Source: Amphiscolops sp. MND2022
Lineage: Eukaryota
Length of the DNA stretch: 64,000 nucleotides
Assembly (NCBI GenBank): GCA_964187785.1
Contig: OZ076409.1
Span: 72,666,001-72,730,000, forward strand
Direction of reading: 5' to 3'
The notes beneath the pieces are model-generated. The model was not told where the DNA came from. It did not search any database and saw only the letters and a program-made list of their open reading frames with translations. Both the position numbers and the translations under genes were made by a program. Below, one piece after another: positions 1 through 64,000 of the stretch. Within the stretch, counting starts at the first letter, position 1. The number at the start of each line of letters is the position of its first letter.

Positions 1-150
1 TTGTGCCTAAAAACTCTTTAAACACTTCTAACGCAACCTTACGCACCCAAAATGATCGAAAATGCTTTTCACAATGGTGACATGTGCTCTTTCTACGATC
101 CTGGCTGGACAAGGTTTGCATATTTTTCAAGTACCTGTCAGCTAAATCTT

Positions 151-198
151 GTGATAGCCTTTTCAGTTGGCCTTGTGTCAACTTGGGAAGGCTATCAC
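151..198. other. H1 bulged hairpin (representative; in A, B, B-long and G cassettes)
   Basis: GTGATAGCCTT-TTCAGTTGGC-CTTGT-GTCAACTTGGG-AAGGCTATCAC imperfect inverted repeat. Confidence 0.85.
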
Positions 199-491
199 AT
201 CAAAAAACCATCAACAAAAATAATTTTTGTTTATTGGATCTTACAGTCGATACTTTTTTTCGTGATTCTATACTACCGTTAGTATATTTCATCAGGTCAC
301 CTTACGATTGCATTCAGTCTTTGATAAAAACCTATGAACTCAAAGTCACATTTATATATTTTTTTGCCAGAAAATAACATCAAAAATATCTAGAATATAT
401 AAAATAGAGTCTTTAACATTTTTACGTTTCAAGTTTTTGCCGTTATTAGGCCAATCAACGTCCTAGAGCCACATCCTGCCACATACTGTAC

Positions 492-558: not shown

Positions 559-597
559 GCCGAATACCGCGGGCCTACGCCCGCGCTCCCCGGCTAG

Positions 598-656: not shown

Positions 657-2587
657 TCCAAAATCAAAATCCTCCTAGTAGAAAACGGCATGTCAAACGA
701 GCTATTTTTTTATTTAACCATACGAATTTCACCATTTTTTGCATGCCGCCCTGAAATGGCCATACGAGACGAAGTTCCTGCTGACGTTTTGCGATGTAAA
801 TGTTTTATAAAAAGTTATGGCCGATTTGTCATTCACCTAGAAGGGTAAAATGAGGAAAATTTCAACAAAGTCGCTGATAACTCAAATTGTGTTAATTTTT
901 GGACTTTGACTGTGAAACAAGCTTGGAACCTTCATTTCGTGGCTGGGGCATTGGACTGAACACAAAAGATGTAAAGTTTTTACGTTTTTTGAAAATTCGA
1001 CATTTTTGAAATTTTTTTCACTACTATCAGTACCCCATATGTCAAAAACACCTAAGAAAAAAATTTTGATTTGCTTTAAATTGGAAACCTTGGTATCCAT
1101 GGTTTCTGTCGGAACCTACTCGCAGCCAAACACCCAACAGTTTGCATCCAATGTGAAAATAAAATTTTTTTCGGGGTCATAAGCGTTTCACAAGGATTTC
1201 TCAACTTAGTATTAATTTACAAAATGGTCATTTTGAACATAATATTTTCATCGAGGCTTGTCGGCTATAGCCTTAATGTTCTAGAACGGTCCCACTGGCA
1301 ACGTAGCAACCATTTATAGTAATATAAAAGGTTAAAAAAATTTTTTCACCCGGTCTTCAGTCATTTTTCAGACATTCGGAGCATAACTTAGAAAATTTTC
1401 GACCCAAATACCCATTTTTTGTCAGGTCGAAAATTAAAATTCAGCTATTGAAGCAAAATTATTTACTCTGACGTAACCAGTGGGGCCCATGATACTCAAA
1501 AACACCATTGGCACTGGTACCAATGGCTCCAATAACATATGAGTCGCGATAAGACGTTATTTTGAGCAATACGTCTCAATTGAGGTAAAGATCTCGCAAG
1601 CCAGCGATCACTGTGAAATGTGATTTCATCAAAAATTTACTCATTTTTGTCAATAACTATGTGCACAGAGTGCGTAGGGTGAGTTCCAGCACTATAATGA
1701 GGTTTTTGAAGGCATCGGGTTGCTCAAGGGGTGGTATGAGACATTTTTTTTCCTATATACTACTGTGTTTTCCAAAACTTGTAGCCCATTATCAGGAAAA
1801 AATAATTTGACAAAATACTTTCAACTACTTTATTCAAAGGTTACAAAATAGATGAACACTGTGGTTGATCAGAAACTTTCATCTCTTTCGTTTTCCGAAA
1901 TAATTCCCTTCGAATGTGTTACATTTGTAGCAGGAAAAAAAACTGAAACTAAAAAATACGCGATTTTGCTGAGATAGAATCACAATGGTTGCGCCTAAAA
2001 TCTCTTTAAATACTTCTAACGCGACCTTACGGACCCAAAATGATTGAAAATGCTATTCACAATGGTGACATGTGCTCTTTCAACAATCCTGGCTGGACAA
2101 GGTTTGCATATTTTTCAAGTACCTGTCAGCTGAATCTTGTGATAGCCTTTTCAGTTGGCCTTGTGTCAACTTGGGAAGGCTATCACATCAAAAAACTTTC
2201 AACAAAAATACTTTTTGTTTATTGGATATTGCTGTCGATACCTTTTTTTGTGATTCTATACTACCGTTAGTATATTCCATCAGGTCACCAGACGATTGTA
2301 TTCAGTATTTGATAAAAACTTATGAACTCAAAGTCTTTTTCATATGTTTTTTGTTCAAAAAAATTATCAAAAAAATTTATATTATAAACAATTGAGTCTT
2401 TAATTTTTTTATTTCCCAATTTTCCAGTGTTATTAGGCTCATCAACTTCCTACTGCAACATCCAGACATTAGTACAACGCCACAAAGTGTTGCGACGTCC
2501 ACCGTCTGTGGGCATGCCGAGGCATGCCCTTCGACGACGTATGCCAAAAATAGCGCCCTCCGCGGTCACTACCGCGGTAGCAGCTAG
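598..2587 (+). mobile_element. U1: family A cassette, 1990 bp
   Basis: Starts GTGGGCGGGGGTAATTCCCC; AT-rich body; H1 hairpin, core, CTAG end. Confidence 0.8.
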
Positions 2588-4789
2588 GTGGGCGGGGGTA
2601 ATTCCCCAACAAAAAAATCGGCCGGCGGGTCGGGTCCTGCCGGCCGTCCAAAATCAAAATCCTCCTAGTAGAAAACGGCCGGTCAAACGAGCTATTTTTT
2701 TATTTAACCGTTAGAATTTGGGTTTAGATTGCATGCGGCCATGAAATGGCCATACGAATGGAAGTTCCTGCTGACGTTTTGCGATTGAAACACTTTATAA
2801 AAAGTTATGGCCAATTTGTCATTCACCTAGAAGGGCAAAATGAGGAAAATTTTAACAAAGTCACTGATAACTCAAAATGTAATAATTTTTGGACTTTGAC
2901 AGTGAAACAAGCTTGGAACTGTCATTTCGTGGCTGTGGCATTGCACTGAACACAAAAGATGTAAAGTTTTCACATTTTTTGAAAATTCGACATTTTTGAA
3001 TTTTTTTTCACTACTATCAGTACACTATATGTCAAAAACGCCTCTGAAAAAAATTTTTATTTGCTTAAAATTAGAAACCTTGGTATCCATGGTTTCCGTC
3101 AGTACCTACTCGCTGCCAAACGCTCAACAGTTTGCATCCAATGTGAAAATATAATTTTTTTCGAGGTCATAGGTGTTTCACAAGGATTTCTCAACTTAGT
3201 ATCTATTTACAAATTGGTCATTTTGAACACATTATTTTCATCGAAGCGTGTCAGATACCACCCTAATGCTCACGAATGGGCCTACTGGCAACGTTGGAAC
3301 CATTTTTAGTAATAGAAAGTATTAAAAAAATATTTTCACCCGGTCTTCAGTCATTTTTCAGACATTCGGTACTTAACTTAGAAAAATTTCGCATCAAAAA
3401 CCCATATTTGGTAGGGTCGAAATTTGAAATTCAGTTTTTTATGCAAAATTATTAACTCTGACGTAACCAGTGGAGCCCATGATACTCAAAAACACGATTG
3501 GGACTGGTAGCAGTGGCTCCAATAACATATGAGCCGCGATAAGACGTTATTCAGAGCAAACGCTCTAAATCGAAGTAAACATCTCTGAAGCCTGGGATCA
3601 CAGTGAAATGTGATATCACCAAAAGTTTACTCTTTTTTGTCAATCACTATGTACACAGAGTGCGTAGGGTGAGTTTCAGGACTATAATGAGGTTTTTGAA
3701 GTAATCGCGCTGCTCAAGGGGTGGTATGAGACTATTTTTTCCCATATACTACTACATTTCCATAAATTTGCAGTCCATTGTCTTGGAAAGATAACTTCAC
3801 AAAAACAATTTTTCTACTCTATTCAGTTATTAGAATAAAGTTGAACACTGTGGGTGATCAGAAATGCTCAATTCTTTTGGTTTTTAAAAAAAATCCTTCG
3901 CATTCGTTACATTTGTGGAAGGAAGGTTATCAGTAGCTCCAAAAAAACGAAATTTAGCACGAACAGACATGCAACGATGCAAAGCAAAAACGTTTTTACA
4001 ACTTCCGACGTTATTATTTTACACAAGAAGTTCGAAAATATCATTCGCAATGCTGTCATTCGCTATATATACGATCGCGGTCAATTTACAAACATTTAGA
4101 TTTCATTGTTCTGCTTGAAAACCAATTTTTGTCAGGTCGAAATTTTAAATTTTGCCTGGGGAGCAATACCCTTCACGCTGAAGTAAACAGTGGGGCCCAA
4201 GTTACTCAAAAACAAGAAAGAGACTGCTACAATATGTCCTAATAACATATGGACCACGATAGTACGTTTTTCACACAAAAAACTCTCATCCGAAGTAAAT
4301 ATGTTGAAAGCTTTTAATCACCGTGAGAAGTGATTTCATCAAAAAATAACTCTTTTTTGTCAATCACTATTTACACAGAATTTGTAAAGTTAGTTTGAGT
4401 CAAGAAATGAGGCTTTACCGTAATATGGGTTGCTCAAGGTGTTATATAAGACAAAAACTTCCTCTTTTCTACTAGCTTCTTCAAATATTTCAACCCTTTG
4501 TCACAATAAGTTAATATTCAAAATCTCTTTGAAATGTATCTTTATGTTGGGGTGAAGTCTAAGAACAATAACTATGATCGAAGAATGCTAGTACTGGTGT
4601 TTGAACCATGTCCGGATGAACAAATCACAAAATCATCAAAAAATTGTTCCCTTTTTTGGTTATTTTGGCAGTACTAAAAATGTTAGCCGAGAAATAATTT
4701 TTTCGATGGCACCATTGGATTCCTCTCAAAAAGTTGGTTATATGACCTGTGTAATAACCCCGTATCTTTTCAATTTAAATATATTTAAA

Positions 4790-6140
4790 AAGCCAACTAT
4801 TTTGACCAAAATCCTAAAAATCATACCATTTCCTAAAAATTTTCAAATGCACCCCATTTGACGTATAAGATAAGCACAGAAAACTATCATATACCGATCA
4901 ACTCTACTCCTATTGTAGATTATTAGAATTTTGTTTAGAATGAATTTTGATGAATAATAAAAAAATTTTGAACCCTCCAAAAATGGGCCAAAATTACACG
5001 AAAAAATTGACCTTAAAATACCAAAATGTCAAAAAATCATCAAAACCCAGGCTTCTTGGGGTTCTATCAACTCCGCGTGGTCCACAGAGTATGCTAAAAC
5101 AGGTTTTACCCGTTTTTGAGCAATATGTGAAAAAGCCGACATTTTTGGGAAAGAAAAACATACCATTTCATGAAAAAATTCAAATGCACGTCATTTGCCG
5201 TATTAGAATAGCACAGAAAACTATCACATACCAATCAACTCTACTTTCTTTGCAGATGAACAGAATTTTGTTTAGAATAAATTTTACCGGATAATAAAAA
5301 AATTTGAATCCTTCAAAAATGGGCCAAAAATACACGAAAAAATGGACCTTAAAAATTTAAAATGTCAAAAAATCATCAAAACAACAGCTTCTTGGGGTTC
5401 TATCAACTCCACGAGGTCCACAGAGTATGCTAAAACAGGTTTTACCCGTTTTTGAGCAATATGTGAAAAAGCCGACATTTTTGGGAAAGAAAAACATACC
5501 ATTTCCTAAAAAAATTCTAATGCACGCCATTTGCCGTATGAAAATAGCACAGAAAACTATCACATACCAATCAACTCTACTTTCATTGCAGATGAACAGA
5601 ATTTTGTTTAGAATAAACTTTACCGGATAATAAAAAAAATTGATTCCTTCTAATATGGGCCAAAATTACACGAAAAAATGGACCTTAAAATTTTAAAATG
5701 TCAAAAAATCATCAAAACCACGGCTTCTTGGGGTTCTATCAACTCCACGTGGTCCACAGAGTATGCTTAACCCGGTTTTACCCATCTTTGAGCAAAATGT
5801 GAAAATACCGACATTTTTGGAAAAGAAAAACATGCCATTTTCTAATAAATTTCAAATGCACGCCATTTGCTGTATGAGAATAACACAGAAAGCTGTCACA
5901 TACCGATCAACTCTACTTCCATTGTAGATTATCAGAAGTTTGTTTAGAATAAATTTTGAAGGATAATAAAAAAATTTGAATCCATCAAAAATGGGCCAAA
6001 ATTACACGAAAAAATTGACCTTAAAATATCAAAATGTCAAAAAATCATCAAAACCACAATTTCTTGGCGTTCTATCAACTCCATATGATACCAAACCAGG
6101 TACTGCCAATCGTTTGAGTTATAATAAAAAAACGTCTTTT
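4790..6140 (+). repeat. About 4 copies of a 336-bp internal tandem repeat
   Basis: ATGGGCCAAAA anchor at 4983, 5319, 5655, 5991 (period 336); outer limits approximate. Confidence 0.9.
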
Positions 6141-6372
6141 TTGGCAAGAATTCCATACCATAAATAATAATCATGTTCCATATAAGAAGCGAATCATTTC
6201 AGATATATACCCTGTTCATTTTTTTAATATTACCGATTATTAATTTAATAGATGTTTTGAATGTGAGCTTCCTAAAAGGTTCAGGTGTGATGATACGTAA
6301 ATAGAACCTTAGTTTCATCGAAATCTCAATTGAATATGTCCAATCTTAACCATCAGATAACAAGAAACACTT

Positions 6373-6415
6373 AAGTACATTCCATCTCCCCATCGGGGGA
6401 GATGAGAATGTACTT
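6373..6415. other. H2 bulged hairpin (representative; in A-long and C cassettes)
   Basis: AAGTACATTC-CATCTCCCC-ATCG-GGGGAGATG-A-GAATGTACTT. Confidence 0.85.
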
Positions 6416-7347
6416 TCGAGAAGCCAAATACGTCCAACATTCAAACTTTTGTAACTTTGTATGTAACTCCTGAAACGAAGAAGGAATAAAATTGTTTCTG
6501 GTACATACATGAGTCTTTACTTCAGCTTCTATTTCTGCTGAACAAAACCATTCGACTCTTTTGCCGGAGTTAAGATCGATTGTATTACCCAGTGAACAAA
6601 GGCATGACTGAAAACGTTTACTACTTTGTTCATAATTTTCTGGCCTTCCGAAATGATGAAACGTCCACATAACTAAGATAGCAAGTGAATGACTGCGAAA
6701 TGCACCTTATTAGATGAGGTAAATAACGTGTAAAACTCTCCTTTATCCTAACATGAGGTTGAGTAATGATCATTTGAGAATAGTTTGATATGTGAATACA
6801 ATAGTATAAAACAAGTACATTTTATATGAATAACGCCGTGGAAAGCGTTCAGAAAGGACAGTAGGCTTGTTTGGAACATGTATGTGTGGTGTCCCTTGGT
6901 GGCGTTCGCTTAGTGTATATGTCGAGGGGTATTCGAGTTGTTATGATAGAATTTACACACAAGTCTTTTGTTTTTTGGTTTTTTTAAAATGTCGTTAAGT
7001 ACCTGCATTCTATCCCCTTCTCAGAGATGACGTGAAGTTACGTTTGCTAAATAAATGTCATCGAAAGATCACACTCCCGACGAAATTAACTATCTTAACA
7101 CGTGTTTAGAATTTTAAATAAACAACCGTATAAGATTTTTATATTTCATTGAGTTTGATGAGGTCTTTTGTTCTTCTCACTACTATTTCAACCAATACAC
7201 ATATCCGTTACCATATCACATGTCTCCATTAGTACAACGCCACATAGCGTTCCGACGCCCACAGTCTGTGGGCATGCCGAGGCATGCCCTTCGACGACGT
7301 ATGGCAAATGGAGCCATGCCCGCCGTCTTTACGGCGGTAGCGGCTAG

Positions 7348-9333
7348 GTGGGCGGGGGTAATTCCCCAACAAAAATTACGGCCGGCGGGTTGGGTCCTGC
7401 CGGACGTTCAAATAGCGCGAAGCATCTAGTAGAAAACAAGGAGTCCTGAAACAGCGATTTTAAAATTGAACCGTTAGAATTTGGTTTTAGATTGCATGCG
7501 GCCCTAAAATCCCCATACGAATGGAAGTTCCTGCTGGCGTTAAGCGATTGAAATAATATATAAAAAGTTATGGCCCATTTTTGGGTCACCGAGAAGGTCA
7601 AAACGAAGAAAATTTTAACTAAGTTGCTGATAACTCAAAATGTGTTAATTTTTGGACTTTGACTGTGAAACAAGCTTGGAACCTTCATTTCGTGGCTGTG
7701 GCATTGCACTGAACACAAAAGATGTAAAGTTTTCACATTTTTTGAAAATTCGACATTTTTGATTTTTTTTTCACTACTATCAGTACACTATATGTCAAAA
7801 ACACCTCTGAAAAATTTTTTTATTTGCCTAAATTTAGAAACCTCGGTATCCATGGTTTCCGTCAGTGCCTACTCGCTGCCAAACACTCAACAGTTTGCAT
7901 CCAATGTGAAAATAAAAATTTTTTCGAGGTCTTAGGTGTTTCACAAGGATTACTCAACTTAGTATCAATTTACAAATTGGTCATTTTGAACACATTATTT
8001 TCATCGAAGCGTGTCATATACCGCCCTAATGCTCACGAACGGGCCTACTGGCAACGTTGGAACCATTTATAGTAATAAAAAGTTTTAAAAATTTTTTTCA
8101 CCCCGTCTTCAGTCATTTTACACACTTTCGGTACTTAACTTAGAAAAATTTCAACCAAAAACCCATTTTTTGTCAAGTCGAAAATTCAAATTCAGCTTTT
8201 TAAGCAAAATAAATAAATCTGACATAACCAGTGGAGCCCATGAAACTCAAAACCACGATTGAGACTGGTATCAATGGCTCCAATAACATATGAGTCGCGA
8301 TAAGACGTTATTTTGAGCAAAACATCTCAATTGAGGTAAACATCTCGCAAGCCAGGGATCACTGTGAAATGTGATTTCATCAAAATTTTACTCATTTTTG
8401 TAAATCACTATGTGCACAGAATGCGTAGGGTGCGTTTCAGCACTATAATGAGGTTTTTGAAGGCATCGAGTTGCTCAAAGGATGGTATGAGACATTTTTG
8501 TCCCATATACTACTGTATTTTCCAAAATTTTTAGCCCAATATCTGGAAATACAAACTTGACAAAATACTGTCAACTACTTTATTCAAAGGTTACAATATA
8601 GATGAACACTGTGGTTGATCAGAAACTTTCATCTCTTTCGTTTTCCGAAATATTTCCCTTCGCATGTGTTACATTTGTAGCAGAAAAAAAAATCGAAACT
8701 GAAAAATACGCTATTTTGCTAAAATGGAATCGCAATGATTGTGCCTAAAAACTTTTTAAATACTTCTAACGCAACTGTACAGACCCAAAATGATTGAAAA
8801 TGCCATTCACAATGCTGACATGTGCTCTTTCTACGATCCTAACTGGACAAGTTTTGCATATTTTTCAAGTACCTGTTAACTGAATCTCGTGATAGCCTTT
8901 TAAGTTGGCCTTGTGTCAACTTGGGAAGGCTATCACATCAAAAAATTTTCAACAAAAATACCTTTTGTTTATTGGAAATGACAGTCGATATATAATTTCG
9001 TGATTCTATACTACCGTTAGTACCTTCCATTAAGTCACCTGACGATTGCATTCAGTCTTTGATAAATACCTATGAACTCGAAGTCATATTTATAATTTTT
9101 GTGCTAAAAATAAACATCAAAATTATCCAATTTATTTAAAATTGAGTCTTTAGCGTTTTTGTTTTACTTTTTCTACTGTTATTAGGCCCATCAACTTCCT
9201 ACAGCCACGCTCTCTGTCATACCGTACAACGCCACATAGTGTTGCGACGTGCACAGTCTGTGGGCATGCCGAGGCATGCCCTTCGACGACGTATGCCGAA
9301 TACCGCGGGCCTACGCCCGCGCTCCCCGGCTAG
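7348..9333 (+). mobile_element. U3: family A cassette, 1986 bp
   Basis: Collinear with U1, same terminal structures. Confidence 0.8.
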
Positions 9334-11319
9334 GTGGGCGGGGGTAATTCCCCAACAAAAAAATCGGCCGGCGGGTTGGGTCCTGCCGGACGTCAAATAG
9401 TGTGAAACATCCAGTAGGAAACGGCGACATAAATCAGCGATTTTAAAATTTAACCGTTAGAATTCGGACTTGGAGTGCATGCGGCCCCAAAATGCCCATA
9501 CGAATCGAAGTTCCTGCTGACGTTAAGCGATAAAAACATTTTATAAAAAGTTATGGCCCATTTTACGTTCACCTATAAGGGTAAAATGAGGAAAATTTTT
9601 ACAAAGTCGCTGATAACTCAAAATACATTAATTTTTGGACTTTGACTGTGAAACAAGCTTAGAACCTTCATTTCGTGGCTGTGGCATTGCACTGAACACA
9701 AAAGATGTAAAGTATTTACATTTTTTGGAAATTCGACGTTTTTGATTTTTTTTCACTACTATCAGTACACTATATGTCAAAAACACCTCTGAAAAAAATT
9801 ATTATTTGCTTAAAATTGGAAACCTTGGTATCCATGGTTTCTGTCGGAACCTACTCGCTGCCAAACACCCAACAGTTTGCATCCAATGTGAAATTAAAAT
9901 TTTTTTCGAGGTCTTAGGTGTTTCACAAGGATTTCTCAACTTAGTTTCAATTTACAAATTGGTCATATTGAACACAATATTTTCATCGAAGCTTGTCAGA
10001 TACCGCCCTAATGCTCACTAATGGGCCTACTCGCAACGTTGGAACCGTTTATAGTAATAGAAAGTTTAAAAAAAATATTTTCACCCGGTCTTCAGTCATT
10101 TTTCAGTCATTCGGAACTTAACTTAGAAAAATTTCGACCAAAATACCCATTTTTTGTCAGGTCGAAAAATCAAATTCAGATTTTTAAGCAAAATTATTTA
10201 CTCTGACGTAACTAGTGGGCCCCATGATACTCAAAAACACGATTGGGACCGGTACCAAGGGCTCCAATTTCATATGAGCCGCGATAAGACGTTATTTTGA
10301 GCAACACGTCTCAATAGAGGTAAACATCTCGCAAGCCTGGGGTCACAGTGAAAAGTAATTTCATCAAGAATTTACTCATTTTTGTCAATCACTATGTGCA
10401 CAGAGTGCGTAGGGTGCGTTTCAGCACTTTAATGAGGTTTTTGAAGGCATCGGTCTGCTCAAGGGGTGGTATGAGACATTTTTTTCCTGTATACTACTGT
10501 ATTTTCCAAAACTTTTAGCCAATTATCTGGAAAAACTAACTTGACAAAATACTTTCAATTACTTTATTCAAAGGTTACAATATAGATGAACTCTGTGGTT
10601 GATCAGAAACTCTCAACTATATTGTTTTCCGGAAAAAATCACTTCGCATCTGTTACATTTGTAGCATGAAAAAAAGCAGAATCTAAAAAATACGCAATTT
10701 TGTTAAAATAGAATCGCGTTGATTGTGCCTAAAAAGTTAATAAACACGTCTGACGCCACCATACAGACCCAAAATGATTGAACATGTCAATCAGAATGCT
10801 GACATGTGTTCTATCTACGATCATGGTTGGACAATTTTTGCATTATTTTCAAGTACCTGTTAACTGAATCTTGTGATAGCCTTTTAAGTTGGCCTTGTGT
10901 CAACTTTGGAAGGCTATCACATCAAAAAATTATCAACAAAAATGCTTTTTGTTTATAGAATGTTGTTTTCGATAAACATTTTTGCGATTCTAAGCTACCG
11001 TTAGTACCTTCCATGAGGTCAGCTAACGATAGCATGCAGTCTCTGATAAAAAAATATGAACTCAATTACATTTTTCTAAAATTTTTCTCAGAGAAAAGTA
11101 CAAATAAATAAAAACAATATAAAATTCTAATCTCAAACAACTATAAATTGTTTGTTTTTCACCGTAATCAGTTTACGACCCATCACCCTATGTCACGGCA
11201 CCGTCATTAGTACAACGCCACATAGTGTTGCGACGTGCACAGTCTGTGGGCATGCCGAGGCATGCCCTTCGACGACGTATGCCGAATACCGCGGGCCTAC
11301 GCCCGCGCTCCCCGGCTAG
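9334..11319 (+). mobile_element. U4: family A cassette, 1986 bp
   Basis: Collinear with U1, more diverged in its 3' third. Confidence 0.8.
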
Positions 11320-50835: not shown

Positions 50836-51907
50836 GTGGAATTGGGTTATGACAAACTCATTTTTCGAGGTTGGGGTAGGGCCCACAACCGAGCCCTAAT
50901 TTCATTTGCTACTGTACCGAAACCCCCCCTGAAAAATCACGATCTTTTATATGAGCCCTACGATTTCGTTGAAACTTTGCATGAGGCAAGAAAAAAAAAT
51001 TCTAAGAATTTTTTCTTGCTGACACTTTTTCGAAAAAACGGTCCTTAATGGTTTTTTTGGCACTTTTTTGTTGAAATTTAGTGCATTTTGTGCATTATTC
51101 GTGAGTAACGTGAATAAAAATGAATGTGCTCAGAATTGGACCATATTATATGCGAATACTCAGCACAGTTATGCGATTTCATTTTCATGTCGCGGCACGT
51201 CGCTCCGACTCTCGAGAGTTAGTTATGACAGGATGAAAAAATACAAATGAGTGCCAAAAAAACGAGGTAGGAATTTTTTTTTTTAAATTATGTTTTCGAA
51301 CAAAAATGTGAATAATTTTTTTTCACATGACAAAAAAAAGTACGAAAAAAAGTACGAAAACAAGTACGAGAAAAAGTACAAAAAAAATTGGATAATTTTT
51401 TTTGAAAAAAAAAACAATTTTTTGGAATATTTTTTTCACCGTACAGGACCTAATTAGTACCGTAGAATTCATTTTATGCATTGCCCAGTTGCCCTTCTAT
51501 TGTTTTGTAGCGCTGACAACTTATTTGAGGTTTGTGTAGCAAAGTATGTTCAGCAAAGTTTAAAGGGAGGAACCATATAGTTTATTTTAAGTCAACTCTA
51601 TTATATTTCACACTGCTGTTAACCAAAATTAACTCTTGCGGTCGTCTCATGGTCCCGGAGTGGTCCATGAGACAGACGCAATGGCAAAACACAAAGGTCC
51701 AAGTGATGATTAGTCGTAGTGTCACATGTGATCCTGCATGTGACGGCTGTATATAGGTTGGAGCTGTTTTTCTTTTTCGAAACTTTCGCATTGGCAATAT
51801 GTCTTTTAATGTCTTAGTTGCGATGTTATTACCTTCATCGAGTACGTTCTCCTAACACTCTTAACCCAACTCGCTAGACTAATGGCAGTGGACGGACACG
51901 AGTCTAG
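50836..51907 (+). mobile_element. U22: family D cassette, 1072 bp (single copy)
   Basis: 5' GGTTGGGGTAGGGCCCACAACC hairpin, conserved 5' block, H4 hairpin 51638-51679, ends AGTCTAG; no core. Confidence 0.7.
51333..51380 (+). repeat. 12-bp minisatellite (AAAAAAAGTACG) x4
   Basis: Four slightly degenerate copies. Confidence 0.85.
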
Positions 51908-52977
51908 GTGGTCAAGGGGGATGCCCATCAGAAAATATTGCGAGGCCGGGGAGGGTCCCGAGAGCCGAGCACATTCTATCAATTCCTACCTTCAGGATTG
52001 CGAAGTATTTTAACCGATCTCGAAATTCACCCGTAGGATTTGTCTGAAACTTTGCATGTGGCTTTATCTCAAAAATTTAAGAATTTTTTTCTGCTGACGT
52101 TTTTCCAGAAAAATTCATTTTGAAGGGTTTTTTTGCGTTTTTTTGGTTTTTTTCATCTTTTTTCATCTTTGATTAATCAATGACCGAATCAAAGGCCATT
52201 TTCACCATGAAGGAAAGCCCGTAGCGGCAAAGTGCACTTTTATGAAAATCATCAACGGTCAACGGTCTTTCGAACGGTCCGAAAAAATTTCCCCCCGGGG
52301 GAAACCAAAGTGCCGAAAAGTGCCAAAATTAATTTTTTGACTGAATCACTTTGATCAAATTGATGATTTGAGCAGCCGGAACGGTCCGCACGGTCTCGGA
52401 CAATAAGGTCAAAAATTGTCAGCATCCAATGGGGGTTCCAAAAATGTAATTCGTTCACCTGTAGGAGACATCAGAAAAAAGTTGATTTTTTGGGGTATAT
52501 GTCATTATGAGTGATTGGATGAGAAATAATTGTATCACTTTCAGTTGGATATGATGCAGCACAGGAAGCAGCTGCAGCAAACTAGAAACTGGTTATGGGG
52601 CTGGGGTTTACCCTCTGTATCGAGCAAAATAGCCCTAGGGCATAAGTTGTGCCAAAAAATGCCTCAAACTGATGATTTGGTTATTGCAAATCGATCAGCA
52701 AAATTTATTGTCACCGGTGTTCCGAGAGTTGCGCAGCATCTCGCAGGAACAACGGTGCTTGTTTAGAAAGCAAAAAACCACAAAATCCCTTGAGTTAAGT
52801 TGACGGCAGTCACCATAGACATTCACTCGTCAGGGTGATGATATTTATCGTTCAATCCCAGAATAACTTACAAAAAATTGCTAGCCTCAATATTTCTTTT
52901 TCATACTCCATTAGCAAAGGTTGCGCTGTTAAGTTTAGGCCTTTTACTAGCAGTGCTCTAAATCGCTCCATCGCTAG
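51908..52977 (+). mobile_element. U23: family E cassette, 1070 bp
   Basis: Starts GTGGTCAAGGGGGATGCCC; H3 hairpin 52710-52757; ends CCATCGCTAG. Confidence 0.75.
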
Positions 52978-54048
52978 GTGGTCAAGGGGGATGCCCATCA
53001 GAAAATATTGCGAGGCCGGGGAGGGTCCCGAGAGCCGAGCACATTCTATCAATTCCTACCTTCAGGATTGCGAAGTATTTTAACCGATCTCGAAATTCAC
53101 CCGTAGGATTTGTCTGAAACTTTGCATGTGGCTTTATCTCAAAAATTTAAGAATTTTTTTCTGCTGACGTTTTTCCAGGAAAATTCATTTTGTAGGGTTT
53201 TTTTGCGTTTTTTTGGTTTTTTTCATCTTTTTTCATCTTTGATTAATCAATGACCGAATCAAAGGCCATTTTCACCATGAAGGAAAGCCCGTAGCGGCAA
53301 AGTGCACTTTTATGAAAATCATCAACGGTCAACGGTCTTTCGAACGGTCCGAAAAAATTTCCCCCCGGGGGAAACCAAAGTGCCGAAAAGTGCCAAAATT
53401 ATTTTTTTGACTGAATCACTTTGATCAAATTGATGATTTGAGCAGCCGGAACGGTCCGCACGGTCTCGGACAATAAGGTCAAAAATTGTCAGCATCCAAT
53501 GGGGGTTCCAAAAATGTAATTCGTTCACCTGTAGGAGACATCAGAAAAAAGTTGATTTTTTGGGGTATATGTCATTATGAGTGATTGGATGAGAAATCAT
53601 TGCATCACGTTGAGTTGCATTTGATGCAGCACACGAAGCAGCTGCAGCGAACTTGAAACTGCTTAGGGGGGTAGGGTTTACTATCTGTAACAAGCAAAAT
53701 ATCCCTTGGGCAAAAGGTATGCCAAAAAGTGCCTCAAAGTGCTAATTAAGTTGTTGCAAATCGGCTAGCAAAATTTATTGTCACCGGTGTTCCGAGAGTT
53801 GCGCAGCATCTCGCAGGAACAACGGTGCTTGTTTCGAACGCAAAACCCAACATACCTCTTTGGTGACGTGACGGAGGTCACCATTGGCCTTTTTCGGCAG
53901 TGTGATGATATTATTATTGTTGAATTGTGAACAACTTACACAAAAGATTTAGCGTGGGATATTTGTTTGTTTCATACTTCAGTAACAAACTTTCAACCGT
54001 TTCGTTTAGGCCTCTACCTAGCAGTGCTCTAAATCGCTCCATCGCTAG
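52978..54048 (+). mobile_element. U24: family E cassette, 1071 bp
   Basis: First ~620 bp almost identical to U23, then diverged; H3 hairpin 53780-53827. Confidence 0.75.
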
Positions 54049-55080
54049 GTGGTCCGGGGAAGTACCCCACAGGAAAATGCGAGGCGCGGGGAGGGTCCTG
54101 CTAGCCGAGCCTAAAAAATAGGATTCTAAAAACTAATTATATGCCAGGGGGGTACAGGAACACGATCTCGGAATTGAACCGTAGGATTTTGCTGAAATTT
54201 TGCATGCAGCCATAAATGGAAATTCTAAGAATTTTTTCCTGCTGGCACTTTTTTGAGAAAACGCAATTTCGGAAGTTATGAGCAAATGATCGGTTTTTTC
54301 ACCTATTTTCGGTACTTTTTCGCTGCAATATCTGCAGCATGTGCACACAATTGGCTGATACTTTACATGCGAGGCATAAATGATGTTAGGTGTTTGCATG
54401 TCAAAAATCATTAGGCTGGTGATACTAGGCTGGGAGATAGAATCGAAAGTGATACCGGGAAATGGTGAAATCTCCGGTCATCGCGTCATAAATTCCGAAC
54501 TTTTGTATAGATGGTCTTTACTTAAGTGGTAGCAGTACAGTTGATGTGTTTTTAACATCACGTGATGAGGATAAAAAATAAAAAATAAAAAAGTTCTACA
54601 TAAGTTCTACCAGAATTCGTAAAATGGAGAATTTTTGCCAAAAAATTTTTTTCCGCGTTTTTAATGAAATAACCTACCAGGAATTCAAAAATCACGTTAT
54701 TTATTGTGCCAGCGGTGTGAAAATGGGTCATAAGTTCAACATTCACCAAATTTCTATACCAGTTTTACCAAACATTGAGATAAAACTGTTCAGTATACAT
54801 TAAACTCAATATGTGACTTTAATTTTTTGGAATCATTGTCACCGGTGTTCCGAGGGATGCACAGCAGCTCGAAGGAACAACGGTGACCCGAAGGGGGGCT
54901 GTAGGTACCTTTTAAATCGTACGGCAGTCACTGTATAGTTTTCTTCGTCAAGGTACTACATGTGATTGTGACATGTAAGATGTTCACGAAAGGAGCCCAA
55001 AATGAACAAGAATTACATGAATTAACATCCGTAGAGTACCGAACGCGCCCTCTGGTAATTGGTACCTTTCCCTCCACTGG
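54049..55080 (+). mobile_element. U25: family F cassette, 1032 bp
   Basis: Double 5' hairpin, conserved 5' block, H3 variant 54838-54887, ends CTCCACTGG. Confidence 0.7.
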
Positions 55081-58000
55081 GTGGTCCGGGGCTTAATTTG
55101 CCCCACAATAGTCATTGCGAGGCCTGGGGAGGGTCCCGGAGCCGAGCGCTATATACAAAATGCATCCATGGTAGACCGGGAGAAAAACAAGCGATTTTCC
55201 AATCTAACCGTTAGATTTCCATGAAACTTTGCACACATACATAAAATCAAATTCTAAGAACTTTTTTCCCCTGACGTATCATGATTGAAACATTTGTTGA
55301 AAAGTTATGTGCAAATGATCGTGTTTTTTGGCCATTTTTCGCATTTTTCACGTAGTAGCTCCACACTTTACGCTATGCATTTGGCCCATTTTTTGCGTGC
55401 GAGGCATAAATGATGTCATGCTTACACATGCCAAAAATTATTTCTTAATTCGCAACAGGAGTGGAGATATGGCGGATAATATTGGCGGAAAATTTAACGA
55501 TTACGAAACTTTGCACACATTTGGCCAACATTTGTTTCAAAAATGACAAAAATCAAAAAGTCCGCGGATTGCGTTGAAACTTGGCACACAGGTAGTAAAA
55601 CAAATTTTAAGAACTTTTTTCTTCTGACGTTTTTCCGAAAAATTGCATCTTCAACCTATATTTGCAATGTTTCGGGTTTTTTGATTCAACGTGATTTATC
55701 ACTCACATATTCAGAGTCCATTTTCAGCATGAAGCAACGCAGATACCGCCAATGTGCACATTTTGCAAAATCATCAACGGCCAACGGTCTACCGAACGGT
55801 CCAAAAAAATTTTCCCCTCGGGCCCAATCAAAGTGGCCAAAAGTGCCAAATGGTTTTTTCCAACAGTATCACCATTACAAAATTGATGATTTGACCAGGA
55901 GCAACGGTCCGCACGGTCTCGGACCATAAGGTGAAAAAGTGTCAGTGAGTTATGGTGACGACCAAAATGACATCAGTTGACCTCTAAGAGGCCTCTGGAA
56001 AAATTTGATTTTTTTGAGTCACGGTCCGAGTTGATCTGTTACGTTGAATGAACATTTCATAATCATGTTACTCATAACCGAGTACAGATAGCACCGTGGG
56101 TCATCTTTATGAAAATGAACATTGGGCAGCGGTCTAACGACTGAGTGCAAAAATAATACCTTAGTTGCCATAGGGAAGGAAAAAAATTTTCAGAAGTGTT
56201 GTTTTCAATTTTTCATGTCGACTCGCAGTTACAAAATTGTGATTTTCTCTTCAGCAACGGTCCGAACGGTCTGGTACCATAAGATAAAAATTTGTCAGTG
56301 TGACATGGTGGCGCCCAAAAACACATCAGAACACTGGTAGGAAGCCTCTGAAAGAGTTTCGAATTTTCACGTGGGTCCGAGAGTTATAGTGTCACATCGT
56401 AACTACATTTCGGGTATGCATATCTCCTCACAGAGTACAGATAGCATCATGGGTCACCTTTTCGAAAAAGAACGTGGGCCACTGGTCTATCGATTGGTTA
56501 GAAAAAGTTTTCAGTCACTGCTGCACGGCGTGAATAATATGCCAATATGGGGTATTTAGCATTTTTTTGCACGACTCGGACCTACAAAAGCCTATTTCTG
56601 CTGCACCAACGGTTTGTACGGTCTTCGACCATAAGGTCAAAAAGTGTCAGTGTGCTATGGTGACGCCCAAAAACCCACCAGTACACTTGTAGAGTGCTTC
56701 CGAAAAATTTTGGATTTTTTAGGTGAGTCCGAGAGTTATAGAGAGTTATGTTGTCACATCGAAACTACATTTCGGGAATGTATATCTCCTGACAGAGTAC
56801 AGATACCAACATGGGTCATCTCTTGGAAAGTGAACGTCGGCCACTGGCCTACCAAATGGTGATAAAAAGTTTTCACCAGTTGCTACAGGGAGTGATAAAA
56901 GTGCTTACATGGGTTACATAGCATTTTTTCAGGCGACTCGGACTTACAAAAAGCTCATTTGCTCGCCAACAACGGTCTCTACGGTCTCCACTCAATGGGT
57001 CGAAAATTTTTTGTGGGCTATGGTGACGCTCAAAAACCCATCAGTTTACTTGTGGGATGATTCTGTAAAAATTTCGTGTTTTCGTGCAGACTATGTTACA
57101 TATTACATTGGGAACCGTGTTTTTTTCTCTCCAAAATCATGTTTTTGAGTGCCCAAAAACTGTTTTTAAAGCCCAGTAGCCATCTAAAATGTACTTTTGC
57201 ATAACACGGGGTGTGAATAACGTGAAAAAAGTGTTCACTGTGGATTTGGAGTTATGTCGAAAAAATCAGCTGCCATTAGACGTTACATTACAGAAAATCG
57301 TACCTTACATATCGATTCATGGGTTGAGTCAAAAACAGCTAAAGTTCTTTTTCAGTCAATCAAGACTCTTTTTTGTTCACAACCAAGTGTACTGCTGACG
57401 TCGAACCTATTTTGACCTTCCACAATGGTTATAGTGCAATTTTGAGGTACAAAAGCCTCGTTGACAAACAAAATTCCAAGATGAAATTGCTTTCCAAATC
57501 ATTTTTTGAAGTATAGGAACGCCATTTTCAGCCGACAACCATCAAATATCCACTTCTCTTGGCCCAGTGGCTTGTGAAAAATACAACTGGGCATTGACAA
57601 GGCACAAGGACCTTACTTCGAGTAGTCATGTGCCACAATATTCGCTAATCGATAGCAAATTTTGTTGAAAATTGATACAACATCACATTTTTGGTGGACT
57701 CGAAATGACAAATTGGAGCTTCTGCAGCAACTATAGGCTTTTAGTGCAACTCAGTGGCACTGTTACTTAGGAAAATACGGTCTACAGTAGTTTCATGCTA
57801 ATTTTTCAGAATCTGAGGTACATAAAAATATCATACTGAATAGACATATGACTTAAACATTGGAATTTTTCCGGTTGTGTCACCACTTTTTTGGTATCAG
57901 CGGTCCTACCAACACCGTTTTTGGTCTAAAACTAAACCCGAGGCTCAACCAAGATATATATGAGACTTGTAAAATCAATGCAAGGACTTTCGACATGTCA

Positions 58001-59975
58001 AAAGTACTGATAAGAAGAGAAACTTCTCAAAAAATCATGGTATGTGTCATATTCCATTCCACGTTTTTTAATCGGTGCTTGTCGGTTATGGTATTAACGC
58101 TGAACAACGACCTCACTGACAACAAACAACTCGTTTATAGTCATTAAAAGTGTTTATAATACAACCATGCTTGGTCTGGACACATTTTTTATCCCATTCG
58201 TTCGTAACAATAAAAATTTTTTCCCCAATAACCCAATTTTTGTCAGGTCGAAAACTGATTTCTCGTGTTTTGAACAACATTATTGTGTTTGACGTAACCT
58301 GTGGCCTCCAAAATACTGAAAAAGAGATATATGACTGGTATCAAATGCTTTAGTGACATGTGAGCCACGATAACACGTTTTGCAAAGAAAAATTCAACTT
58401 TCAACTGAAAATTTCGAAGACACATTTTCACAATAGAAACAGAATATATAACAATCTAACCTAATTCCCGTCAATTACTATTAATATAGTATCATTGTTG
58501 CGAATATGAGGTCCATACAGGGGTGTATGGGAAAAAAATGGCGCATAAAGCATTGTGTAACACAAAGTTTACCAAAGTACTAAGAATTTGTCACGGTTTC
58601 TTTGCACTCTAACTCAAAAATTTGATGGTGTAAACATCAATGAGCAGTTCAATTTAGTACGGTTTATCAACTGTGTATCTTTTTCAAAGTGCACAATCTT
58701 TCTGTTGTTCCAAACTCCTTTGTTAGGGCTGAAAAGTGTCATATGTTTTACAACGCAATGTTCATTAAAAGATACATTAGCAAAGACCGAATCAACTTCA
58801 CAGCAGGTAATCAAATTCTCAATACGTTTTTCAGTACTTGGATTTCGCAGACTATATAGATTTCATTTGCATTTTTATAAAGACTTTATAACTGAATCTT
58901 GCATTTTTATAAAGAGTTTATAAAAAAATTTCGTGATAGCCTTCCAAGTTGGCCTTCGGCCAACTTGGAAGGCTAACACTACAAACACCAAAAACCAGGA
59001 GTTCCTCTACTCTCAAAATAGGCGGGGAAACTTTCATTGAACTTTCCTTTCTCACATTAATTGATAATTTCAGGACATGAGCATTTCTATTCGCTATACG
59101 ATGACCACCATTGTGTTCAATAAATAAATCTTTCCTTGTGACGCTTAAAAATACCATAAAAACTAACTTGAAACATATGAATTGTATGTGGAACGTACAT
59201 TTATCTAACCAATGAGTGGCTACCCCTATTGGTTCCACGAAATCCTCTACCCCTCCACCAGACAGTACGTTACATCATACGTTGATGTCTTCCACAGTGG
59301 TCACATAGGGCAAAAAAAAGGAAATGGAGTTGGAGTGTATGTATTTCTAATGCATTTAAGTCAGCCACTTGTGATAGGAAAGGTTCAAAACTACGGAATA
59401 AATCTATCCTAGCTGAAAATTGTTTCGGCAAACACATGGCACACAAAAATACTTCAAAAATTTCCAGCAGTCAATTCCTTCCACAAAAATTTTTCTGTCC
59501 GATTGTGAATAATTTCAATATTTGGAATTCGCCAGTCCCGTCATCTTCGCATCTCACCTCGGTCACAACAGAGCTTTCTTTTTTTCAATTCTCTCCACCC
59601 ATTTCCACATAACGAGGCAGTTACGTTCACTATTTGGAGTGTTATTGGAGATTATAAGGCATTAATCACTGTAATGAACAATTACTTCTAATGTTGAAAC
59701 TCTTCCAGTTTTCTTTGTAAATTGTCAAAGTAGAACATCGCTTTTATTCAGCAGGAACGTCGCGTTGGCTTGCAGATTGATGGATAAGTGACAAGTAGCA
59801 TTGTAAGGCACCACGTGTCGTGGAGATGCCAAATATGAAATACGTTGAACACAACAAAGACTACTTTTGTCAACAGAACGGAAAACGAAAATTTTATTGT
59901 TGAAAATTCTTTTCTTTCTATACACATTTTCCTCGCTTCTCGGCAGTGTAACTGCAACAACCTCGCCTCCACTGG
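55081..59975 (+). mobile_element. U26: family G cassette, 4895 bp
   Basis: Double 5' hairpin, ~355-bp internal repeats, A-related module near 58240, H1 hairpin 58933-58979, ends CTCCACTGG. Confidence 0.7.
55880..57080 (+). repeat. Diverged ~355-bp internal tandem repeats (4 anchors)
   Basis: CAACGGTCCG-ACGGTCT...TGTCAGTG anchor near 55903, 56256, 56608, 56970. Confidence 0.75.
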
Positions 59976-62900
59976 GTGGTTGGGGCGTTATTCCCCACGA
60001 AGTTCGCGGCCGCGGGAGACGGGACCCGCGGACCGCCCATCCAATGCAAAAATATACACTCTAAACAGCACCATTATAAACACGATCTCGAAAATGAACC
60101 GTAGGATTGTCTTGAAATTTTGCATACGGATAGAAGAGAAAATTCTAAGAACTTTTTCCTGCTGGCACTTTTCCGAAAAAAATGTCCGTCATGGGTTTTT
60201 TTGGGTTTTTTTGGTTTTTTCTCATCTTTCTCATCTTTGATTAATCAATCACTGAATCAAAGGCCATTTTCAGCATGAAGGAATGCCCGTAGCGGCAAAG
60301 TGCACTTTTACAAAAATCATCAACAGTCAACGGTCTTTCGAACGGTCTAAAAAATTTTCCCCCGGGGGGCATCCAAAGTGCCGAAAAGTGCCAAAATATT
60401 TTTTTGGTCTGAATCATTTTGATGAAATTGTTGATTTGAGCAGCAGGAACGGTCCGCACGGTCTCGGACCATAAGGTCAAAAATTGTCAGTGAGTTATGG
60501 TGACGACCAAAATGACATTGGTTGAGCTGTAGGAGGCCTCTGAAAAAATTTGAATTTTTTGAGTCTACAATCCGAGCTGAACTGTTACGTATTATGAACT
60601 TTTCAGTACTATGTTGCCAATGACCGAGTACAGATAGATGCATGGGTCAGCCTTATTGAAATGAACATTGGGCACTGGGCTACCGATTGAGTGCAAAAAT
60701 TATAGCCTAGTTGCTGTAGTCGAAGAAAAAAATTCTCAGAAGTGTTACTTTCAATTTGTCATGTTGACTCGGAGTTACAAAAAGGTGATTTTCTCGCCAA
60801 CAACGGTCCGAACGGTCTTCGACCATGAGATCAAAAATTGTCAGTGTGCTATGGTGACGCCCAAAAACCCAGCCGAACAAGCGTAGGATGCTTCTGAAAA
60901 AATTTCGAATTTTTACGTCGGCCCAAGAGTTATTGTGTTACATCGTAACAACATTTCGTGTATGCATATCTCCTGACAGAGTACAGATAGCATCATGGGT
61001 CACCTTTATGAAAGGGAACGTGGGCCACTGGTGTACTGCATGGTTATAAAAAATTTAGACTAAGTGCTGCACGGCGTGAATAATATGCCAAGATGTGTTA
61101 TTTACGATATTTTAGCACGACTCGGACTGACAAAAAGCCTATTTCTTCCCCAGCAACGGTCCAAACGGTCATCAAGTGTAAGGTCAAAAAATGTCAGTGT
61201 GACATGATGGCGCCTAAAAACCCACCAGAACATTGGTAGGAAGCTTCTGGAAAAAATTCGAATTTTTACGTGGGCCCGAGAGTTATGATGTTGCATCGTA
61301 GCAACATTTCGTGTATGCATATCTCCTGACAGAGTACAGATAGCATCATGGGTCACCTTTTTGAAAAAGAACGTGGGCCACTGGTCTATCGATTGGTTGT
61401 AAAAAGTTTTCAATCACTGCTGCACGGCGTGAATAATATGCCAATATGGGGTATTTAGCATTTTTTTGCACGACTCGGACCTACAAAAGTCCCATTTCTG
61501 CTCCACCAACGGTCCGTACGGTCTTCAACCATAAGGTCAAAAAGTGTCAGTGTGCTATGGTGACGCCCAAAAACACACCAGTACACTTGTAGAGTGCTTC
61601 CGAAAAATTTTGGAATTTTTAGGTGAGTCCGAGAGTTATAGAGAGTTATGTTGTCACATGGTAACTACATTTCGGGAATGTATATCTCCTGACACAGTAC
61701 AGATACCAATATGGGTCATCTTTTGGAAAGTGAACGTGGGCCACTGGCCTACCGAATGATGATAAAAAGTTTTCACCAGTTGCTACAGGGAGTGATAAAA
61801 GTGCTTACATGGGTTACATAGCATTTTTTCAGGCGACTCGGACTTACAAAAAGCTCATTTGCTAGCGAACAACGGTCTGTACGGTCTCCACTCAATGGGT
61901 CGAAAATTTTTTGTGGGCTATGGTGACGCTCAAAAACCCATCAGTTTACTTGTGGGATGATTCTGTAAAAATTTAGTGTTTTCGTGCAGACTATGTTACA
62001 TATTACATTAGGAACCGTGTTTTTTTTTTCACCAAAATCATGTTTTTGAGTGCCCAAAAACACTTTTTTAAAGCCCAGTAGCCACCTAAAATGTTCTTTT
62101 GCATAACATGGGATGTGAATAACGTCAAGAAAGTGCTCACTATGGATTTGGAGTTATCTCGAAAAAATCAGCTGCCATTAGACGTTACATTACAGAAAAT
62201 CGTACCTTACATATCGATACATGGGTTGAGTCAAAAACAGCTAAAGTTCTTTTTCAGTCAATCAATACTGTTTTTTGTTCACAACCAAGTGTACAGCTGA
62301 CGTCGAACCTTTTTTGACCTTCCACAATGGTTATAATGCGATTTTGAGGGACAAAAGGCTTGTTGACAAACAAAATTCCAAGATGAAATTGCTTTCCAAA
62401 TCATTTTTTGAAGTATAGGAACGCCATTTTTTGCCGACAACCATCAAATATCCACTTCTCTTGGCCCAGGGGCTTGTGAAAAATACAACTGAGCCTTGAC
62501 AAGGCACATGGACCGTAATTCGAGTAGTCATGTACCACAACATTTGCTAATCGATAGCAACTTTTGTTGAAAATTGATACAACATCACATTTTTGGTGGA
62601 CTCGAAATGACAAAATGGAGCTTTACCAGAAACTATTGGCTTTTAGTACAACTCACTGGCACTGTAAGTTACGAAAATACGGTTTACAGTAGTTTCATGC
62701 TACTTTTTCAGAATCTGAGGTACATAAAAATATCATACTGAATAGACAAATAACTTCAACATCGGAATTTTTCCGGATGTGTCACCACCTTTTTGGTATC
62801 AGCGGTCCTACCAACACTGCTTTTGGTCTAACACTAAACCCAAGGATCAACCAAGATGTATATCAGACTTGTAAAATCAATGCAAGGTCTTTCGACATGT

Positions 62901-64000
62901 CAAAAGTACTGATAAGACGAGAATCTTCTCAAAAATTCATGTTATGTGTCATATTCCATTCCACGTTTATTAATCGGTGCTTGTCGGTTATAGTATTAAC
63001 GCTCAACAACGAGCTTACTGACACGAAACAACTTGTAGACAGTTATTAAAAGTATGTATAATTCCAACATGCTCGGTTTTGGCAGATTTTTCATCCCATT
63101 AGTTCTTAACGTGTAAATTTTACTTCCCAAAAACCCTATTTTTGTCAGGTCGAAATTCGAATTTTCGTGTTTTGATCAATATTATTGTGTCTGACGTAAC
63201 CTGTGGCCTCCAAAATACTCAAAAACAATAGTATGACTGCTATCAAATGCTTCAGTGACATGTGGGGCACGTTAACACGTTTTGGTAAGAAAAATTCCAC
63301 TTCGAAGTGAAAATTTGGAAGACACATTGTGTCAATAAAAACTGAATACATGCAAAACGTTCCTAACTCCCGTCAATTAGTATTGACGTAGTAACTGTGT
63401 TGCGAATTAGAGGTCTATAGAGTGGTGTATGGGAAAACTGTGGCGCATAAAGCGTTGTTCATAACAAAGTTCTTCCAATAACTACAATTGTGTTTTCAAA
63501 AGTTTCACTATATTTCACATATTCACAGAATGTGATTGATGCTACCTAGTAATGGAAAACCACTGTCGAATCTTCTTTAGTGGACTCAACAGTCCTGAAA
63601 ATCACAGACATACATCACGTTTCATAATTATACACTCGAGGCTACACAATAATTTATTTCCGCTAGTTGCTGATAACTGAATTTCCTGATAGCCTTCCAA
63701 GTTGGCCTTGTGTCAACCTGGGAAGGCTATCAGCACAAAACACAAAGAACACAGCTTGTTGTTGCCTCTAATTTGCTGTTGTTTTCGTTAAGATTTTATG
63801 GTACCGTTTCTTTATAACATGTGGTTAACATAAGACAATTTCTCTCTGTATGGAACGACATCCATTGATAAGAAAGATTACAGTTTTTTAGTTGAAAAAG
63901 ACCTTGAAACTACTGCGCAATTCATGCAATTTATCCAAAACGTTCATTCATTTCAATAATTTGCGTCCCATTGAGCGTCACAAACCACTATACCTCCTTT
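59976..64000 (+). mobile_element. U27: family G-related cassette, truncated by the window end
   Basis: E-like 5' region, G-type repeats and body, H1 hairpin 63687-63732. Confidence 0.7.
60430..61980 (+). repeat. Diverged ~354-bp internal tandem repeats (5 anchors)
   Basis: Same anchor near 60448, 60801, 61155, 61508, 61871. Confidence 0.75.

Follow-up and report, generated by a model that had tools for sequence, protein, structure and literature searches.

Helitrons that lie side by side, or that choose where they insert, have been described before. Head-to-tail junctions are known for canonical Helitrons (PMC5876387, PMC4067079, PMC12477314). Tandem Helitrons occur in plants and bats, and distantly related ones are sometimes directly adjacent; some Helitrons prefer sites near other Helitrons, and some target telomeres (reported, between them, in PMC11417382, PMC13085455, PMC5148889, PMC3627910, PMC5876387, PMC13404089, PMC4067079, PMC10288648, PMC12477314 and 10.64898/2026.09.17.752431). 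The telomere-targeting Helitrons of Paramecium form a clade outside the two main groups, HLE1 and HLE2 (PMC13085455). One HLE2 family with a GIY-YIG domain is on record, from Sphagnum, and at least four Helitron clusters were left unclassified in the same work (PMC11417382). Here we describe a 64,000-nucleotide stretch (the window; C1:72,666,001-72,730,000, C1 being contig OZ076409.1) of a 1.07-Gb eukaryotic assembly. The window lies within an array of non-autonomous Helitron-like units, all on one strand, that join at the sequence CTRG/GTG (the slash marks the boundary between units, or between element and target). All results are drawn from assembled sequence, the contigs of which are labelled C1, C4, C5 and C8. 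The elements run from GTG to CTRG, and they insert behind a host CTNG, before A, T or G followed by T, with no duplication or loss. Autonomous members, which encode a Rep-helicase transposase (RepHel) with GIY-YIG domain and a predicted OB-fold protein, occupy the same arrays. We consider it probable that a single seam serves this group as origin, terminator and target, and that a junction-preferring RepHel builds the arrays. Tandem and clustered Helitrons are already known, but arrays of the present form are apparently undescribed: neither elements that run GTG...CTRG nor multi-family arrays joined at their own junction were found described in the literature outside Repbase, Dfam, subscription journals and bioRxiv supplements.

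In the window CTRGGTG is present 35 times where 8.3 would be expected, a count that none of 100 shuffles reached. Twenty-seven of these are on the + strand and are unit junctions; the other eight, on the - strand, lie inside A and B-long units at fixed positions. Cutting at the 27 junctions yields 26 complete and 2 partial non-coding units, which reproduces the 28 cassettes, and their order by family, of a preliminary description of this DNA. The units are as follows.

1 to 64000, + strand: array of same-strand non-autonomous Helitron-like units, continuing on both sides
1 to 597, + strand: unit 0, family A, 3' part only
598 to 2587, + strand: unit 1, family A, 1,990 bp
598 to 660, + strand: example of a left end, with GTG start, small hairpin, and larger hairpin with G-rich loop
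2510 to 2587, + strand: example of a right end, with 20-bp palindrome, spacer and CTAG
2588 to 7347, + strand: unit 2, A-long, 4,760 bp; internal tandem repeats of 336 bp occupy 4817-6083
7348 to 9333, + strand: unit 3, family A
9334 to 11319, + strand: unit 4, family A; matched at 99.0% by a C5 unit with other neighbours
11320 to 16090, + strand: unit 5, A-long
16091 to 18077, + strand: unit 6, family A
18078 to 20073, + strand: unit 7, family B
20074 to 22065, + strand: unit 8, family B; matched at 99.1% by a unit lying 76 kb upstream and at 99.3% by one 1.7 Mb away
22066 to 24039, + strand: unit 9, family B
24040 to 25317, + strand: unit 10, family C, 1,278 bp
25318 to 30078, + strand: unit 11, A-long; two upstream copies at 99.4-99.5%, with other neighbours
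30079 to 32067, + strand: unit 12, family A
32068 to 34062, + strand: unit 13, family A
34063 to 36055, + strand: unit 14, family B
36056 to 38037, + strand: unit 15, family A
38038 to 40027, + strand: unit 16, family A
40028 to 42005, + strand: unit 17, family A, of the subfamily found as solo insertions in host repeats
42006 to 44080, + strand: unit 18, family B, with exact 81-bp left-end duplication at 42006-42167
44081 to 46871, + strand: unit 19, B-long, 2,791 bp
46872 to 48841, + strand: unit 20, family B
48842 to 50835, + strand: unit 21, family B
50836 to 51907, + strand: unit 22, family D, 1,072 bp, without 3' palindrome
51908 to 52977, + strand: unit 23, family E
52978 to 54048, + strand: unit 24, family E, 91% identical to unit 23
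54049 to 55080, + strand: unit 25, family F, with CTGG end
55081 to 59975, + strand: unit 26, family G, 4,895 bp, with internal repeats of ~350 bp and CTGG end
59976 to 64000, + strand: unit 27, G-related, 4,737 bp in total, ending 712 bp past the window

With 60 kb of flank included on each side, the resulting 184 kb contain 86 + strand junctions, which delimit 85 complete units, and the array extends at least 58 kb beyond the window in both directions. The earlier statements that the units share one orientation, that no host DNA separates them and that none lies within another hold for the window and for the whole 184 kb. The 85 units fall into 16 body families and 54 subfamilies (95% cut-off). 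The families of the window had been called unrelated, but they are not wholly so: most have a ~130-bp subterminal segment in common, at ~100-230 nt, and the bodies of A and G are 68-72% alike over 150-320 bp. Between the window units and the autonomous copies compared, only terminal segments are common. No reading frame resembling RepHel or its companion ORF2 was found in the window (tblastn, 6 proteins), and Rfam and tRNA scans of it gave no match. The length of the long units is partly accounted for by tandem repeats of 336 bp or ~350 bp; internal repeats lie at 4817-6083, 13552-14832, 27548-28882, 56379-57053 and 60766-61974.

That all this is an assembly artefact, or one complex satellite, is highly improbable. 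An array at C1:23.98 Mb does contain a 200-N gap with an inversion, but 16 body families and 54 subfamilies are hard to reconcile with one satellite, the same junction recurs at numerous loci, complete with host flanks and empty paralogs, and intact 7-kb open reading frames (ORFs) lie within the arrays, one of them 100% identical to a protein encoded on an ENA contig that was deposited separately. Nor are the hallmarks of satellites, homogenised neighbours and higher-order repeats, in evidence: 2 of 84 neighbour pairs reach 95%, and a single trimer is duplicated. At the gap just mentioned, a + array and a - array meet tail to tail (C1:23.977-23.980 Mb; L023-L024), possibly a scaffolding join.

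The ends of the elements are well defined. Every window left end (27/27) begins with GTG and carries a hairpin with a G-rich loop that starts 39-55 nt in. GTG also begins 41 of 41 distinct left ends in a set gathered by the junction motif itself, and is borne out, too, by solo copies and empty sites. The 20-bp palindrome GGGCATGCCGAGGCATGCCC lies 60-75 nt before CTRG in 22 of 27 window right ends; a strong 3' hairpin is lacking in several families and in the L026 lineage. At 124 junctions the right end is CTAG in 110 and CTGG in 14, and A-type left ends are preceded by CTRG in 927 of 934 cases. One right-end motif runs into GTG in 1,419 places and into a base other than G in 26; the latter pattern leaves out matches with A as their last base, and G without TG is counted by neither. 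The R of CTRG stays with the upstream unit, so the cut falls at CTR^G or CTRG^. Asymmetric terminal inverted repeats were not found above chance in 95 end pairs, a few from merged units (lengths equal to the shuffled control). Within 17 non-autonomous representatives the target motif occurs 3 times on one strand and 14 on the other (p=0.013, 1 of 11 motifs tested), and within four autonomous lineages 12 and 17 times; this strand depletion is a weak signal. The left-end duplication of unit 18 recurs, again exact, in a unit at window-equivalent position 74203 (L008). Fusarium Helitrons with several 5' termini have been reported, and both cases resemble these; such a duplication may be an aborted start.

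Where right ends are free of an array, the host side can be read. After removal of three chance matches from the 26 non-G cases, 23 host ends remain (two pairs of them paralogous), beginning AT in 19, TT in three and AC in one. The host targets read are CTAG/AT, CTAG/TT, CTAG/GTA and CTTG/AT. The fixed 7-bp site first proposed thus describes the 27 junctions of the window, but it is not a strict 7-mer where host DNA is entered. Empty-site comparisons were informative at three loci, and uninformative at a fourth. A solo unit of 1,978 bp interrupts a host repeat of which 11 out of 11 paralogs are uninterrupted, eight of them reading CTTG/ATT. A second host repeat contains two CTAG sites separated by 17 bp, of which the first holds one unit and the second two different units; again, 11 of 11 paralogs are empty. 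The third case is an array of 232,659 bp (C1:70,454,838-70,687,496), within one host site, whose flanks when joined read CTAG/GTATCAAC, as do 3 of 3 paralogs read; its interior is known from motif positions and 5 kb of sequence, and the paralogs resemble, by eye, a LINE (long interspersed nuclear element) reverse-transcriptase copy. At C1:29.54 Mb, the paralogs diverge at the junction. Arrays and solo copies are flanked by non-telomeric host repeats. Insertion at CTNG, before A, T or G followed by T, is thus without duplication or loss at the three informative loci, as the preliminary description supposed. The LINE is broken, 42 bp past the array end, by a different element (L196 240-400 to L194 430), which is ~2.4 kb long, has T-rich flanks and a terminal hairpin, and looks like a Helentron derivative.

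The enzyme, predicted earlier to be supplied in trans by a Rep-helicase or a tyrosine recombinase, is encoded by sibling units bounded by the same junctions. A Pfam Helitron_like_N search of the genome returned strong canonical matches, and weak ones in open frames of ~2,350-2,600 amino acids, many of them at C1:73.5-76.5 Mb on the array strand. Ten of these RepHel copies were examined. The nine with both ends within reach are all units of 12-17 kb, bounded by CTRG/GTG, inside arrays; the tenth has the same left junction. Such array-embedded units occur on C1, C4, C5 and C8. Their first ORF comprises Y2 HUH Rep motifs 1-3, a Pif1 (SF1B) helicase and a C-terminal GIY-YIG domain, with the FxTxTCN, EFQ..HxH, YxxxY and Walker A motifs intact. 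There are four lineages, which are 28-30% identical to one another and yet use one common junction. They score 31-40 bits with Helitron_like_N, compared with 205 for canonical Helitrons, and give no sequence match to a Helitron transposase in the PDB. GIY-YIG is doubtful as a targeting module, because it is degenerate, by eye, in the L046 and L049 lineages, both of which reside in arrays. ORF2 (280-390 amino acids) is present in five of seven units compared; it is a fragment in the L047 type, and missing from the L046 type. It belongs to no family in a Pfam scan. Its structure was modelled with a mean pLDDT (predicted local distance difference test) of 34 from the single sequence and 79.5 from an alignment, and the latter model resembles OB-fold proteins that bind single-stranded DNA (Foldseek E 8e-6; best Z 9.9, root-mean-square deviation 2.9, 115 residues), RPA and MCM10 among them; ORF2 is therefore a predicted OB-fold protein. 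An N-terminal OTU-like region, common in Helitrons, occurs in P0004 (L049), P0028, P0030 and P0032.

Helitron-like is, in the broad sense, what these elements are: the RepHel combines Y2 HUH with an SF1B/Pif1 helicase, and there is no target-site duplication. This supplies the class that the preliminary description left unspecified. Their ends, target and domains, however, fit neither HLE1 nor HLE2. With HLE1 they share the Y2 HUH-Pif1 RepHel, a CTRR-type right end, the absence of target duplication and an RPA-like accessory gene. They differ in the left end (GTG rather than TC), in the target (CTNG/DT rather than A/T), and in having two left-end hairpins and a C-terminal GIY-YIG. HLE1 elements have a short 3' hairpin ~11 bp before the end; the palindrome of the window right ends is 60-75 nt upstream of CTRG in 22 of 27. 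Published tandem arrays of Helitrons are ascribed to missed termination or rolling-circle amplification, whereas here neighbours are rarely near-identical. With HLE2 (Helentron, Helitron2, proto-Helentron) the elements share hairpins at both ends, non-autonomous copies with internal tandem repeats and a homologous Rep core (hhalign 97%, 20% identity), although the region upstream of Rep does not align. They are without the asymmetric terminal inverted repeats, the T/T or T/C target, the apurinic/apyrimidinic (AP) endonuclease (none in a Pfam scan of the array RepHels) and the DUF6570 of that group; DUF6570 is present in 3 of 3 Helentrons of the same genome, and absent from the four array RepHels and two relatives scanned. 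The group could lie within the unclassified clusters of PMC11417382. In a quick Rep tree, from which half of the collected proteins were omitted and in which the references are in-genome rather than published ones, 44 array-type proteins stand apart from eight HLE1 and four Helentron rows of the same genome (Shimodaira-Hasegawa approximate likelihood-ratio support 99), though long branches meet there. Also present in that genome, with long open frames, are HLE1 elements of the canonical kind and Helentrons of the endonuclease type (L050-L055, L013-L022); scanned stretches of the L050-L055 loci have no junction motif.

The Helitrons of Paramecium are, by description, similar in their long transposase ORFs and their sequence-directed, strand-specific insertion, and in a right end (CCAA) that equals the target repeat, with same-orientation clusters that include non-autonomous copies (PMC13085455). 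No GIY is mentioned in the available text of that paper or in its seven supplements. The target and flanks of the Paramecium elements are telomeric repeats, whereas the array elements use their own junction. In the prokaryotic HUH elements IS91 and IS200/IS605, too, the element end equals the target motif. These resemble the array elements in having a tetranucleotide target, orientation-specific insertion and no duplication (PMC10288648, PMC5876387). Replitrons have a Y1 Rep without helicase (PMC10288648), unlike the array RepHel with its fused Pif1. That the array elements are eukaryotic, have a fused helicase, and form megabase multi-family arrays separates them also from IS91 and IS200/IS605. 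Integrons employ a tyrosine integrase and attI and attC sites, and insert at one attI. Their arrays are alike in being discrete units of one orientation joined at a regenerated site, and 'integron-like', the term used earlier, survives as an analogy. The array elements use an HUH-helicase, the transposase lies inside units, there are no cargo genes, and junctions are many and internal. Integron identity is not supported: the enzyme is an HUH RepHel, and in the array stretches read RepHel and ORF2 are the sole long ORFs, with no integrase found there (no genome-wide integrase search was made).

How the arrays grow can be read from their order. Among the first 45 units, 0 of 44 neighbour pairs reach 95%, no dimer is repeated, and copies at 99-100% stand tens of kilobases apart with different neighbours. 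Satellite expansion had already been judged unable to explain the order, and these counts agree. In all, 27 unit pairs at 98% or more join different loci, including loci on other chromosomes. Near-identical units that lie apart with different neighbours point to growth unit by unit, and we conclude that this is mostly how arrays grow, by insertion rather than as concatemers or higher-order repeats, with recombination as a second process. Host sites are not scarce. CTAG/DT occurs about once per kb in a 249-kb repeat-rich host sample, or about a million times genome-wide, and the 85 units hold 44 internal + strand CTRG/DT sites, none of them used; no nested unit was seen in the 184 kb. The bare tetranucleotide is thus insufficient to explain the arrays.

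By the model that we favour, RepHel would nick the + strand at CTRG/GTG, as the Helitron mechanism suggests, and unwind as far as the next CTRG, after which the ends would be joined into a circle that inserts at another CTRG/NT. Circular intermediates are inferred from the Helraiser and FoHeli work. Since the element end is the target tetranucleotide, each insertion leaves a target at both ends. As a target, the junction would greatly surpass a host CTAG that stands alone, as it carries the left-end hairpin that RepHel presumably binds. Arrays would gain single units from whichever families are active, and recombination between related units would add mosaics and occasional block duplications.

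Genome-wide, the palindrome occurs in 4,293 copies, 3,427 on one strand and 866 on the other, and nearly all of the first 100 places are embedded in arrays. Solo copies, array ends and HUH-encoding long members were all found, and arrays are present at many loci, where one had been supposed. The cluster to which the window belongs lies on C1, from 70.45 to 76.48-76.50 Mb, and in it 10 of 10 sampled places are + strand array. A single unbroken array of 6 Mb is ruled out by a host break at C1:70.687-70.697 Mb, and with at least one such break this is a cluster of arrays. Families are zoned along it: A-type left ends are missing between 70.45 and 71.38 Mb and common from 71.38 Mb onwards, and further right 1.3-kb families dominate, with autonomous copies concentrated at 73.5-76.5 Mb. 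A role as centromere is not favoured, because copies concentrate in one cluster.

Several observations weigh against the favoured model. Among the last 40 units, same-family neighbours are in excess (13 versus 7.6, p=0.006), a three-unit block is duplicated at 99.8-100%, and three consecutive units are 98-99% alike; A units are mosaics whose best partner shifts along the unit. Recombination or local copying evidently contributes. These same features favour an account in which sites are founded specifically and arrays then grow mainly by homologous recombination (of circles into related units, by unequal exchange or by gene conversion). We think this quite unlikely, given the run of 45 units with neither repeated dimer nor near-identical neighbours, the precise joining of families that lack body homology, and the two different families at one fresh host site. 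Dispersed copies present another difficulty. Of array-free right ends, 15 in 20 have no recognisable left end within 5.2 kb, so that older remnants exist, undercounted by exact motifs, and the right-end counts omit both ends followed by G other than GTG and pattern matches ending in A. It might be, then, that the elements and target are as described but that junctions are not preferred, dispersed copies being lost to selection or decay, or circles re-inserting near their donor in one chromatin compartment. Solo copies and short arrays in host repeats, the many array-free right ends that resemble remnants, the zoning of families on C1, and the strand bias of the palindrome, which fits one dominant cluster, are all compatible with this. 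It is nevertheless unlikely: host CTAG/DT sites outnumber junctions several hundredfold, the internal sites stay unused, and young copies at 98-99% on different chromosomes are still at junctions. Insertion is also not always clean. On C8 (L114, C8:25,690,001; 1450-4237), a unit starts after CTTG, 1.1 kb into another short unit, and nearby a 13-bp spacer ending in CTGG and a 164-bp fragment starting with GTA make imprecise junctions; one solo copy is 9 bp short, and follows GTCC. Finally, no autonomous element with an A or B body was seen among the eight compared.

Relatives of the array RepHels are found elsewhere. A Rep profile matches 344 clusters at E<1e-30, and 1,391 at 0.001, among 1.84 billion representatives, and the former number suggests that the group is common. 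The sole named matches, at 23-26%, are to proteins from Styela clava. When a profile was built from the helicase end and GIY-YIG tail, it matched 75 of the 83 such proteins that are at least 2,000 amino acids long, and none of three Helentrons. In one distant relative, on two metagenome contigs (L176/L177), the same left-end hairpin loop lies 1.6 kb before the ORF, and there is an ORF2 homologue. These are the only ones of 27 metagenome loci with the hairpin; the junction was found in none, most contigs stopping near the ORF. No relatives were found in viral contigs. The balance leans, modestly, towards a broader reading, in which an unnamed, old and widespread clade with RepHel-GIY-YIG and OB-fold protein targets its own seams. 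Its self-made landing pad would be a safe-harbour strategy, kept across lineages 30% identical, with arrays of hundreds of kb per host site and a 6-Mb cluster.

If this is true, here is a eukaryotic DNA transposon whose own end-to-end junction is its preferred target. It would offer a direct test of how self-made safe harbours enable thousands of transposon copies, and a way for transposons to give rise to megabase blocks of repeats other than by satellite amplification. Also added is a group of Helitron-like elements whose scores on the Pfam Helitron model are low and whose ends are not those sought by annotation tools. A precise, duplication-free, site-regenerating HUH transposase that handles units of 1-17 kb would be relevant to targeted gene insertion. 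One stray copy may be added: a lone 3' palindrome fragment, without CTRG, lies in a Gypsy-like retroelement (L058 5806).

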